Part shown: positions 10,843-20,869 of the stretch, one piece after another
Layout of the letters: every line of letters begins with the position of its first letter
How positions within the stretch are numbered: position 1 is the stretch's first letter
IMG/VR virus record: IMGVR_UViG_3300027956_000026
Coordinates: 1 to 35,499 of that record
Strand: one strand, 5' to 3'
Length of the DNA: 35,499 nt
Origin: a virus
Taxonomy: Duplodnaviria > Caudoviricetes
The notes under the pieces: generated by a model
Database searches by the model: none
Told to the model about the DNA's origin: nothing
The model's input: only the letters and a program-made list of their open reading frames with translations
Program-made: the position numbers and the translations under genes

Positions 10843-11391
10843 ATGCTTCAACTTCTATGCAACGCCTGCAAAGGCGAATTCCCCGCGTCCAGCTTTCACA
10901 AAGCTGCGACCACAACCCGTGGCTATCAGTACAAGTGCAAAGCGTGCGTGTCTATTACGGATAAGTCACCAACACCTGAAGCGCGGCTGCGAAAACTGGA
11001 AAAGCTCAAAGAATGGGTGGTGGGAAATCCAGATAAGCGCAGAGAACAAAAGCGCAGACACTACGAAAAGCACAAAGACCGAATCGACCAGAGAGCAAAA
11101 GAGTGGTACGACAGCAACAAAGATCGGCATGTCCACAATGCGCTTTTGCGAAAATACGGCGTAACGCTTGAGCAGTACAATTTGCTCAGGGCGCAGCAAG
11201 GCTTCTGCTGCGCTATTTGCAACGACCACGAAGATTCCGTAGGGAAAAAGATGTTCGTTGACCACGACCACGTAACCGGAAAAATCCGAAAATTACTGTG
11301 CACGAAGTGCAATGTCGGAATTGGCATGTTGAAAGACAACCCTGACATCATGGAGCGTGCGGCCAAGTACTTAAGGGACCACAATGGCTGA
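10843..11391 (+). CDS. Free-standing endonuclease VII-like (His-Me finger) homing endonuclease
   Basis: N-terminal CxxC...CKAC; KYGVTLEQY...QGFCCAIC...VDHDHVTGKIRKLLCTKCNVGIG. Confidence 0.88.
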   Translation: MLQLLCNACKGEFPASSFHKAATTTRGYQYKCKACVSITDKSPTPEARLRKLEKLKEWVVGNPDKRREQKRRHYEKHKDRIDQRAKEWYDSNKDRHVHNALLRKYGVTLEQYNLLRAQQGFCCAICNDHEDSVGKKMFVDHDHVTGKIRKLLCTKCNVGIGMLKDNPDIMERAAKYLRDHNG

Positions 11392-17459: not shown

Positions 17460-18506
17460 ATGAAAATAGCCGTCTACGCCATCAGCAAGAACGAGGGACA
17501 GTTTGTTCAGCGTTTCTGTGACTCTGCCAAAGATGCAGATTTGATTCTGATTGCGGATACTGGCTCGACCGACAACACACAAGCCCTTGCCATTAATTGC
17601 GGGGCAGTTGTTCACGAAATCTGCGTCAAGCCTTGGCGCTTTGACAAGGCCCGAGACACGGCGCTTGCACTGCTACCATCCGACATCGACATCTGCATTG
17701 CGTTGGATTTAGACGAGGTGCTTGAGCCGGGGTGGAGGCAAGAGGTTGAAAGGCTTTGGGCAGAAGGAACAACCCGGCTACGCTACAAGTTTGATTGGAG
17801 CAACGGCGTTGTGTTTCACAGCGACAAGATACACCACCGGCACGGCTACCATTGGCATCACCCAATCCATGAAGCCATTCGTGCTGATGCCAGAGTGCCC
17901 GAGGTTTACGCTCACACAGACATGCTGCTGGTAAGCCACCACCCTGACGAAACAAAGTCGCGTAGCCAGTACCTACCGTTGTTGGAGTTGGCGGTCAAAG
18001 AAGACCCGCACTGCCATCGTAATGCGTTTTACTACGCCAGAGAACTGACGTTTTACGCGCAGTGGCAACAGGCTATTCCAGCCCTCAAAAAGTACTTGGC
18101 AATGCCGCAAGCAAGCTGGAGCCATGAGCGATGCTATGCCATGAGGCTGTTGGGCAAGTCGCACGAAAGCCTAGGCGAGATCAAAGAAGCTGCGAAGTGG
18201 TATCAGGGCGCTTGCCTTGAAGAACCGAACACCCGTGAGCCGTGGGTAGATTACGCCATGTTCTGCTACAACACCCATGATTGGGAGACTTGCTACTTTG
18301 CAGCAAACAGGGCGCTCAAAATTACTCAAAAGCTAGAGGTCTACACGATGGACCCGGCTGCATGGTCTGACAAGCCTCATGACCTTTGCAGCATTGCGGC
18401 TTGGCATTTAGGTTTCAAAGACAAAGCCCGCCGCGAATTGGAAGAGGCTTTAAAATTCAAGCCTACCGACGCCCGGCTACTTGCCAACAAGGAACTGATG
18501 AGATGA
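17460..18506 (+). CDS. GT2 glycosyltransferase with TPR-like C-terminus
   Basis: KIAVYAISKNE, DTGSTDNT, FDKARD, LDLDE (DXD motif), IHE; helical repeats follow. Confidence 0.9.
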   Translation: MKIAVYAISKNEGQFVQRFCDSAKDADLILIADTGSTDNTQALAINCGAVVHEICVKPWRFDKARDTALALLPSDIDICIALDLDEVLEPGWRQEVERLWAEGTTRLRYKFDWSNGVVFHSDKIHHRHGYHWHHPIHEAIRADARVPEVYAHTDMLLVSHHPDETKSRSQYLPLLELAVKEDPHCHRNAFYYARELTFYAQWQQAIPALKKYLAMPQASWSHERCYAMRLLGKSHESLGEIKEAAKWYQGACLEEPNTREPWVDYAMFCYNTHDWETCYFAANRALKITQKLEVYTMDPAAWSDKPHDLCSIAAWHLGFKDKARRELEEALKFKPTDARLLANKELMR

Positions 18507-19003
18507 GCACGATTGACAAGACTGACGCACGGCTGTCCAAACTCAAAGAGTACCTGTCTTACGATCCAGATACGGGTGTTTTTTCTTGCATAAAACCTTC
18601 TGGAAAAAGGAAGGTCGGCGATTTAGTTGGAACAATTAACGGTCGCTATTTGCAAATTGGGTTTGGAATGCAACGTGAGCGAGCGCATCGTTTGGCTTGG
18701 TTGTATGTGCATGGTGAAATGCCCAAAGTCATTGATCACATCAACGGAAATGGGCTAGACAATAGACTGTGCAATTTGCGAAATGTAAGCCAACAAGAAA
18801 ACGTGCAAAATTACAGGAATGTTCCAGCGCACAACAGCACGGGGTATTTGGGAGTTTCATACTACAAAGCGGGTAAAAAGTTTTCTGCTTGCGTAAGCAA
18901 CAACTACAAAAAAATTCACCTTGGGTATTTTGACAATCCTGAGACCGCGCACCAAGCATATTTAACTGCAAAAAGAAAGTTGCACACATCATGCACGATC
19001 TAG
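18503..19003 (+). CDS. HNH homing endonuclease with AP2-like DNA-binding C-terminus
   Basis: LSYDPDTG, AHRLAWLYVHG, IDHINGNGLDNRLCNLR, STGYLGVS, HLGYF; AT-rich relative to flanking genes. Confidence 0.9.
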   Translation: MSTIDKTDARLSKLKEYLSYDPDTGVFSCIKPSGKRKVGDLVGTINGRYLQIGFGMQRERAHRLAWLYVHGEMPKVIDHINGNGLDNRLCNLRNVSQQENVQNYRNVPAHNSTGYLGVSYYKAGKKFSACVSNNYKKIHLGYFDNPETAHQAYLTAKRKLHTSCTI

Positions 19004-19005
19004 AT

Positions 19006-19179
19006 ATGATTTCTTCAACAGAATCACGCTTTAACGCTCATGAAATGGTTTGCGCTGAAAGGTACGAGCAGATCAACGCCAGGTTAAAACGCATTGAGGG
19101 CATCATGCTCAAGACCGCTGGCGTGATGCTTCTGTCTATGGCCGGGACGATTTTCTCGGCTGTGTGGGTACTCAAATGA
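19006..19179 (+). CDS. Small coiled-coil plus transmembrane protein of the lysis region
   Basis: HEMVCAERYEQINARLKRIE followed by a C-terminal TM helix; ATG 18991 is an alternative start. Confidence 0.7.
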   Translation: MISSTESRFNAHEMVCAERYEQINARLKRIEGIMLKTAGVMLLSMAGTIFSAVWVLK

Positions 19180-19268
19180 AAGACTGGGCCGTTAGCTTCA
19201 TCGCTGCGGCCCTTCTGGTCGGGCTTGTCATCTATTGCGCCAAGGTGTTCATTTGGGCGATGTCATGA
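19176..19268 (+). CDS. 30-aa membrane peptide
   Basis: MKDWAVSFIAAALLVGLVIYCAKVFIWAMS; ATGA-coupled at both ends. Confidence 0.55.
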   Translation: MKDWAVSFIAAALLVGLVIYCAKVFIWAMS

Positions 19269-19330
19269 GGGTGAAACTCGTTGTTGTTTGGTGGCTGCTT
19301 CAAGTCGCCCTTGTTGCCGTAAAGGGTTGA
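19265..19330 (+). CDS. 21-aa hydrophobic peptide
   Basis: MRVKLVVVWWLLQVALVAVKG; ATGA-coupled and ends 1 nt before the next ATG. Confidence 0.4.
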   Translation: MRVKLVVVWWLLQVALVAVKG

Positions 19331-19763: not shown

Positions 19764-20291
19764 ATGCTGTCTCTTATCTCAACCCTTGGAGGTCTGCTGA
19801 TCTCAGGCTTGCCTAAGTTGCTGGAGTATTTTCAGAACAAGGCTGACCAGAAGCACGAACTGGCGCTGGCTGCTGTTCAAACGGAACGTGAATTGGCTTT
19901 GGCTGCTGCTGGTTTTGCTGCCCAAGCCCGTATTGAGGAAATCCGCACTGAGCAAGTCGCAATGCAGACCCATGCTCAGATGGCCGAGGCCGAGGCTGAG
20001 ATGGTAAAAGGCGCTCAAGAGCACGACAAAGCAGTGCTGGCCAAGGCATCCACATGGGTTGCCAACTACATCGGCACCGTCAGACCAACCGTGACCTACA
20101 TCTTCGTGCTGGAACTGGTCTGCATCAACATCTTCTTGTGCTACTACCTGTATACAAACCCAGGTATGATCTCCAGCATGGATGATGTGCTGCGTTACGC
20201 TGACATCATCTTCAGCCCTGACGAGATGGCTATGCTCGGCGGCATCGTGGGGTTTTGGTTCGGGTCAAGAAACTGGGACAAGCGCAAATGA
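19764..20291 (+). CDS. Holin-like membrane protein
   Basis: N-terminal amphipathic helix, VRPTVTY and GFWFGSR motifs typical of 3TM holin-like proteins; upstream of the lysozyme. Confidence 0.7.
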   Translation: MLSLISTLGGLLISGLPKLLEYFQNKADQKHELALAAVQTERELALAAAGFAAQARIEEIRTEQVAMQTHAQMAEAEAEMVKGAQEHDKAVLAKASTWVANYIGTVRPTVTYIFVLELVCINIFLCYYLYTNPGMISSMDDVLRYADIIFSPDEMAMLGGIVGFWFGSRNWDKRK

Positions 20292-20869
20292 TCGGGGTCT
20301 ACGCCATAGTTCATGTGCCAACAAACGTGGGCTACGTTGGCAGCGCCAATGATTTGCGCCGAAGGTTTAAGGAGCACAAAACCTGTTTGCGCGGCGGTCG
20401 GCACCATAGCAAGTACCTGCAAAATGCTTGGAACAAATATGGTGAGCAAAGTTTTGAGTTCAGGACTTTGGCCTGCGCAGAGTCCGCCGTCCAAGCGAGA
20501 GAGTTGGAGCAAGCGTTTCTCGACTGCTTTTACAAGCAAACCATGAACTGCAAACCTTCTGCTGTTGGTTTTCCATCGGGCGACGCACACCACGCAAAAC
20601 GCGACGACTTTCACATGAAGACGGTGATGCAACGCCTTACCCCAGAGGAAAGGCAAGCAAAGTACGGCAAAACCAAAGGCACGAAGCGCGGGGGCCTTCC
20701 TTACGTTGCTGGGTCGGCAAAAAGGCTTGCCGACCCAGAGTTTCGGACAAAATTGAGCGAAGCCTGCAAAGGAAAACGTGAGGTTGTGCAGTGCCCACAC
20801 TGCGGCCTACAAGGCGGCGGAGGCAATATGCGCCGGTATCACTTTGATAAATGCGGGAAAAAGCCGTGA
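20288..20869 (+). CDS. GIY-YIG homing endonuclease
   Basis: GVYAI...YVGSA..L.RRF..H...L..G.H...LQNAWNKYGEQSFEF; C-terminal CPHC...H...C zinc finger. Confidence 0.9.
   Translation: MIGVYAIVHVPTNVGYVGSANDLRRRFKEHKTCLRGGRHHSKYLQNAWNKYGEQSFEFRTLACAESAVQARELEQAFLDCFYKQTMNCKPSAVGFPSGDAHHAKRDDFHMKTVMQRLTPEERQAKYGKTKGTKRGGLPYVAGSAKRLADPEFRTKLSEACKGKREVVQCPHCGLQGGGGNMRRYHFDKCGKKP

Follow-up and report, generated by a model that had tools for sequence, protein, structure and literature searches.

A cassette in a phage genome that probably acts as a non-splicing homing element replacing the 5' end of a small membrane-protein gene

How can an endonuclease gene take over the first codons of a phage gene and still leave that gene with a start? 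The question is raised by one locus of a phage record that was analysed over its whole length (the window; 35,499 nt), a complete-looking sequence of 35.5 kb in which polymerase, terminase, portal, capsid and lysozyme genes were recognised with Pfam. An HNH open reading frame of 166 aa (18503-19003) has the N-terminus MSTIDKTDARLS, and an ATG at 19006, 2 nt past its TAG stop codon, opens a short gene that starts MISSTESRFNAHEMVC. Both features had been noticed in an earlier sequence-only reading and were confirmed here; that reading had explained them by an element that captured the first 12 codons of a resident gene and supplied a recoded start in their place. The cassette is flanked on one side by a glycosyltransferase gene and on the other by small membrane genes, which precede the lysozyme gene, and the sequencing runs containing the locus are freshwater, soil and wetland metagenomes. 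Our analysis makes it quite probable that the cassette is a non-splicing homing element replacing the 5' end of a small phage membrane-protein gene.

All features of the locus lie on the plus strand. The upstream host flank, outside the element, is a glycosyltransferase/TPR gene (17460-18506; Pfam), the stop codon of which overlaps the ATG of the leader as ATGA. The leader (18503-18538), recognised by its identity to element-free starts, corresponds to codons 1-12 of the target gene; it is joined in frame to the nuclease, for which it supplies the start. It is followed by the HNH-AP2 endonuclease core (18539-19003; Pfam, PHROG 99), with the HNH domain at about 18680-18805, the AP2 domain at about 18842-18982 and the TAG at 19001-19003. 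An overlapping ATG within the HNH tail (18991-18993), in frame with the target gene and conserved across loci, is a candidate start of the repaired gene (MHDLDM...). The element-borne replacement N-terminus (18991-19062, with the second ATG at 19006) was delimited by GC3 and by identity between the window and a second element locus, L001, and the right edge of the carried tract falls somewhere in 19063 to about 19076. The host body of the target gene follows (19063-19179). From 19006 to 19179 the target gene encodes 57 aa, a small protein, charged in its N-terminal half and hydrophobic at the C-terminus, located upstream of lysis genes. No Pfam family matched this protein, which appears weakly XhlA/holin-like; there was a weak match to PHROG 1193 'hemolysin' (E 0.008, 3 of 20 members), and the nearest named cluster in the atlas was XhlA (0.90, 21% of members), which is to be read as a lead only.

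Assembly artefact was ruled out by contigs of an independent second study, which bridge 18505-19054 and 18973-19125 and thereby span both junctions with 0 differences. In HNH-free relatives (88-90% aa identity) the target gene directly follows the upstream gene. A scan for promoters and terminators gave hits at chance level only. An echo of the leader motif TDARL at the end of the upstream gene (18468-18482) was taken as chance; close relatives read P[NDEK]DPRL at this position.

For the 57-aa gene at least 590 relatives were found, and the best 80 of these were examined. In 79 of the 80 this HNH is absent and the gene itself starts like the HNH leader, as had been predicted for HNH-free homologues; four of them (L057, L072, L078 and L080) read MSTIDKTDARLSTHEEVC letter for letter. 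The remaining one, L001, has the element-type start together with an HNH tail, and among these best 80 of at least 590 relatives the MISSTESRF start occurs only downstream of the HNH. The leader is identical to the 79 element-free starts at a mean of 26.7 of 36 nt (maximum 32 of 36), and the window departs from the empty alleles at 18537/18538. The empty locus L382, chosen via its lysozyme, aligns with 84% identity up to 18537 and picks up again at 19060. The replacement shares on average 15.7 of 30 nt with the empty alleles, compared with 21.9 of 30 for the same codons of the leader. Leader and replacement share 15 of 30 nt and both align to the N-terminus of the family; their resemblance, which had been pointed out from the two starts alone, is real homology. 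Within the replacement (19024-19032), an A and an L that are invariant in 79 of 79 empty alleles become S and F. The compositional shift noted earlier held between replacement and gene body (GC3 6/19 versus 28/38, p=0.004), whereas between leader and HNH core it is suggestive only (9/12 versus 67/154, Fisher p=0.067). Filled and empty alleles are present within the same DNA runs, and the leader is likely to serve as the left homology arm.

Other HNH genes were also seen near the target gene. Two of the 79 HNH-free relatives carry an unrelated HNH (31-37%) one gene farther upstream, and a second HNH clade (31-46% to the HNH of the window; L020 2080-2691, L038 1971-2513, L081 1344-1847) lies at least one gene upstream of the target, past a long upstream gene, with stop-start overlap.

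The relatives of the nuclease were analysed at two levels. The protein search listed 120 of 279 matches, from which the clade sets were drawn: a clade of 51 proteins, consisting of the query and 50 proteins at ≥58% identity (one without N-terminus was dropped), and 64 more distant HNHs (five were dropped). Among these 120 of 279 listed matches, leaders matching empty-allele starts were found in 32 of the 51 clade proteins versus 0 of the 64 more distant HNH-AP2 proteins, which agrees with the earlier expectation that such a leader is not typical of other HNH homologues. The other clade members start with MKGP without a recognisable leader (13 of 51), have three extra codons (4) or have short or diverged leaders (2), and because of the first two groups leader capture is regarded as optional. 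At the DNA level, a member of the target family with an element-type start immediately follows the nuclease gene at all 43 loci holding a ≥55% relative of the nuclease, versus 0 of 137 loci with HNHs below 55%. The 43 loci reduce to 29 distinct ones, one of which is the contig of the window itself. The element is rare, occupying 1 of 120 loci in a pattern-selected sample.

Insertion after codon 12, as first proposed, fits the break of the window at 18537/18538, but over the family the junction ranges in position from upstream of the start codon to codon ~21, with leaders ranging from none to about 21 codons. In pairs of filled and empty alleles the junction is at codon 3 (L109/L331), codon 5 (L203/L268), codon 10 (L196/L326), codon 14 (L199/L359) or before the gene (L106/L297); for about one third of the loci no clear matching empty allele was found. 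The right junctions fall in the conserved C..RY region. A quick nuclease tree (147 columns, many open forks) has the leader types interspersed within supported clades, and since different leader types occur inside these clades, the junctions appear to have formed repeatedly.

One shared pattern was found in all 29 replacement starts, and the gene bodies that follow are matched by different empty alleles. Since it is common to all 29 element loci, the spare start appears to be old conserved cargo of the element and not, as the sequence-only reading had it, a diverged and recoded copy of the start of the window's allele. The cassette thus consists of the nuclease plus a spare start of ~20-25 codons, and it is present in many host alleles. 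The median dN/dS of the replacement is 0.17 (79 non-independent pairs). The restart had been placed 2 nt after the HNH stop; the ATG at 19006 is there, but the real restart of the repaired gene may be the overlapping ATG at 18991, which coincides with the last four HNH codons. An ATG stands at the 18991 position in 26 of the 29 distinct loci (TTG in 2), the ATG 2 nt past the stop occurs in 22 of 29, and in 4 loci only the overlapping position has a start codon. This ATG arises from a CTI-stop ending that unrelated HNH-AP2 proteins share, which suggests that the nuclease tail was co-opted, so that the start of the host gene would be built from the nuclease's own tail. By eye, no obvious Shine-Dalgarno sequence precedes 18991 or 19006, with which coupled reinitiation would fit.

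Movement of the cassette between hosts can be followed in near-identical copies. Window and L001 are identical at 102 of 103 nt over 18974-19076 and at 81 of 103 nt thereafter; from codon 29 onwards L001 is identical to the empty allele L075 (90 of 90 nt), and the window matches L075 at 72 of 90. A contig from run X4 differs from the window at 4 positions in 18509-18792 (98.6% identity) and has 57 other bases upstream. As leader and HNH stand here behind another upstream sequence, most of the leader seems to travel with the element, and the 12 codons of the window were probably not captured at this insertion, contrary to what had been supposed. These patterns together point to recent movement of the cassette between hosts. 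The crossovers fall within the initial codons and near codons 20-28, and near-identical cassettes are found in different host alleles at both flanks. Such two-sided host exchange is, judged from the alignments, the footprint expected of homing, which is characterised by optional presence, filled and empty alleles and sharp co-conversion boundaries, all of which were found.

The nuclease itself combines HNH_3 (aa 60-101, E 8e-14; Pfam) with a C-terminal AP2 domain (aa 114-160, E 3e-7; 31.2 bits, just below the Pfam cut-off of 33.3), the architecture of HNH-AP2 phage endonucleases. H79, N91 and N100 are invariant in 39 aligned proteins, and the DH..N..N motif, read by eye, is intact at 29 of 29 loci. 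The median dN/dS is 0.13 (30 non-independent pairs). A structure model (pLDDT 91.5) has its best fold match with I-HmuI, at an E of 5.5e-3 that lies above 0.001, followed by AP2 domains. A sequence search against solved structures returned only designed Kelch-repeat proteins, whose scores added up from weak repeats, none of the stretches passing by itself, and was dismissed as an artefact. In cultured-phage records the element was not found, the best matches being at 43-44%.

The residue after the conserved HE of the target protein may bear on where the nuclease cuts. Among 118 parsed empty alleles from a second subfamily, 100 have A there; in the 29 replacements the residue is Q (21), M (3), L (2), K (2) or E (1), and never A (0/29). 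This HE-A rule is not general: in the subfamily of the window the residue is E in 71 of 79 alleles (best 80 of at least 590 relatives), and HEE also occurs in one replacement. Many left junctions cluster near the HE codon, which suggests that the cut is made near HE.

An element-type start without the nuclease was found at 10 of 119 other loci in the pattern-selected sample. In seven of the ten (L317, L291, L300, L303, L325, L345 and L378) a TAA or TGA stands exactly at the position of the HNH stop, and these seven HNH-free alleles are probably scars of nuclease loss. Compared with the element locus L192, L317 matches upstream and through four codons at 68 of 74 nt, in the replacement at 60 of 66 nt and in the rest of the leader at 8 of 33 nt, the pattern that an in-frame deletion would give. 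The reverse of loss, in which HNH-free element-type alleles donated the spare start, is a tenable alternative. GC composition was rejected as support for the scar reading: relative to the body, the N-termini of the scar alleles are not significantly AT-richer than those of ordinary alleles (p=0.69), and the same test of element loci against ordinary alleles gave p=0.11. The leaders of L108, L191, P0013 and P0036 resemble element-type HNH-free alleles, hinting at re-invasion of scar-type alleles.

From these observations the following course of homing is proposed. During coinfection the nuclease would cut an empty allele near its 5' end, close to the conserved HE..C codons. The cassette would copy itself into the break, the gene body serving as right arm and either the leader or microhomology forming the left arm; as both proposed arms lie inside the target gene, the variable upstream neighbour would be irrelevant. 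The nuclease would then be translated from the coupled start of the host, and ribosomes would restart at 18991 or 19006 and produce a whole chimeric host protein, the altered 5' sequence of which would be protected from cutting. If the nuclease were later lost by in-frame deletion, the spare start would stay in place and constitute a new allele. The homing reading is supported by the leader-like empty starts (79 of the best 80), by linkage (43/43 versus 0/137), by the leader matches (32/51 versus 0/64), by differing junctions and interspersed leader types, and by the same cassette in different hosts, purifying selection and the avoidance of HE-A by the replacements. It is weakened by the 1/120 occupancy, the HEE cases, the third of the loci left unpaired, the leaderless MKGP starts, the I-HmuI match at E 5.5e-3 and the change of the invariant A and L.

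Several other explanations of the locus were weighed against homing. The HNH and a spare start allele might form a passive module that spreads by ordinary mosaic recombination, the nuclease cutting elsewhere or serving the phage. Genomes that are highly mosaic upstream of the target and the low occupancy (1/120) speak for such a module; we consider it improbable, because exchange has its left and right boundaries within ~30 codons of a single gene, in-frame junctions of many kinds turn up repeatedly, purifying selection maintains the catalytic motif and the replacement avoids the commonest empty-allele codon. Less credit still is given to one insertion event, in frame behind codon 12 of the window's allele and accompanied by a duplicated and recoded N-terminus, which as a one-off is largely contradicted. 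It would explain why the window breaks from the empty alleles at 18537/18538 and why the 12-codon junction is shared by six other protein clusters, but the spare start is common to all 29 loci, other subfamilies included, the leader accompanies the element into other upstream contexts, and the sister lineages P0009 and P0010 have longer leaders. The 12-codon leader may instead be a later shortening, and a single insertion may have occurred in the ancestor of the seven-member subclade.

Restoration of leader plus body by splicing or ribosome skipping of the insert is the remotest of these explanations. Phage HNH genes often lie within group I introns (PMC2988022, in the sections available), but the insert gave no Rfam match at E≤1 and is coding over its whole length, which leaves no space for a ribozyme, the junctions vary, some of them falling outside the gene, and the replacement start is conserved. 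Neither a group I intron nor an intein was recognised, the reading frame ending in a stop at 19001 and the downstream gene lying in another frame. Splicing is thus unlikely on these grounds, and at the level of the sequence no intron signature was found, in line with the earlier reading of gene repair without splicing.

Taking up the homing reading again, a wider picture may be drawn, which we offer tentatively and with slightly more doubt than belief. The cassettes would form a widespread phage 5' end-replacement family, in which the left arm and start codon are renewed from each invaded host and the host start is made of the element's last codons. Exit by in-frame deletion would leave resistant chimeric alleles (L317 beside L192) that can be re-invaded, and a WHO-like arms race would drive N-terminal diversity.

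In the literature searched, mostly open-access and without supplements, no description of a phage 5'-end-replacement element was found, and the available sections of PMC7344957 and PMC8393795 contain nothing on 5' end replacement. Fungal parallels had been named earlier; of those that have been tested, the nearest is the yeast WHO element, which resides at FBA1 in Torulaspora and Lachancea (PMC7282813; bioRxiv 10.64898/2026.08.13.744650; both in the parts available). WHO elements and the cassette alike combine an endonuclease with an alternative host-gene end, without splicing and with a chimeric gene after homing, and in both the old end is left behind and allele diversity is concentrated at the replaced end. 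WHO elements replace the 3' half with a LAGLIDADG-zinc finger enzyme, are eukaryotic, occur in clusters and have had their cleavage demonstrated, whereas the cassette replaces the 5' end with an HNH-AP2 enzyme of predicted cleavage, has a variable junction and fuses the old end to the nuclease, to which it gives the start. Mitochondrial mORF hybrids (Glomus atp6, atp9, cox2 and nad3, Allomyces atp6; PMC3630166; Tremella fuciformis, PMC7315562) are similar in that the foreign gene terminus of a mobile endonuclease ORF replaces the native one. In the sections of PMC3630166 available they differ in carrying a C-terminal piece and LAGLIDADG or GIY-YIG enzymes. The Tremella pieces are called 'N-terminal', yet they lie at the 5' end of the insert and duplicate the following exon (PMC7315562, available part), which we read as the same 3'-replacement geometry. 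The cassette likewise carries an alternative host-gene terminus and strands the native terminus on the opposite side; it resembles a WHO element in how it works but belongs to neither group, as WHO elements and mORFs use enzymes of other families and act on 3' ends.

Among phage systems, T4-type free-standing homing endonucleases (mobA in gene 60, mobE in Aeh1 nrdA) share with the cassette an intron-free mobile phage HNH, insertion within coding sequence and the one-sided illegitimate microhomology repair described for T4 homing (PMC2988022). They differ in splitting the gene into two reassembling polypeptides, with no spare terminus described in the sections available, and in cutting far from the insertion site, whereas the inferred cut of the cassette is at the insertion. 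HNH-AP2 (IPA-HNH, PHROG 99) phage endonucleases share the HNH plus AP2 architecture (PMC10448857). The out-of-frame HNH of ShiLan is a comparable non-splicing insertion in a phage gene but translation continues through it in the frame of the host gene, making it part of the host protein (PMC11855218). A captured leader or replacement start is described in the available parts of neither source.

If the homing reading is correct, phage homing endonucleases gain a route into coding sequence in addition to introns, inteins and the splitting of genes. The old 5' end would be reused as start signal and homology arm, which would allow homing despite a non-conserved upstream neighbour. N-terminal variation and apparent duplicated starts in phage genes would be possible scars of selfish elements, at which annotation pipelines would mis-call starts. 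The system is small, with a 166-aa enzyme, a target of less than 90 bp and ~200 natural empty as well as 29 element alleles.

Two further nuclease genes are present in the window, at which end replacement or a captured leader was looked for and none was seen. A GIY-YIG endonuclease gene (20288-20869) lies between a membrane gene (end 20291) and the lysozyme gene, with overlapping starts at both ends. In 69 lysozyme relatives the membrane gene and the lysozyme gene mostly abut; 5 have a related GIY-YIG (39-48%) and others have different inserts. It is an ordinary intergenic element. An Endonuclease VII-type gene (10843-11391) lies between the small and large terminase genes. Of 80 terminase relatives, 5 have it upstream; in L089 and L090 the site is occupied by an HNH. 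Finally, a 63-nt GTG-rich stretch between two small genes (19268-19330), possibly a 31-codon ORF, is lacking in L382, and relatives in runs X4 and X6 have a 12-nt insertion at 19279.
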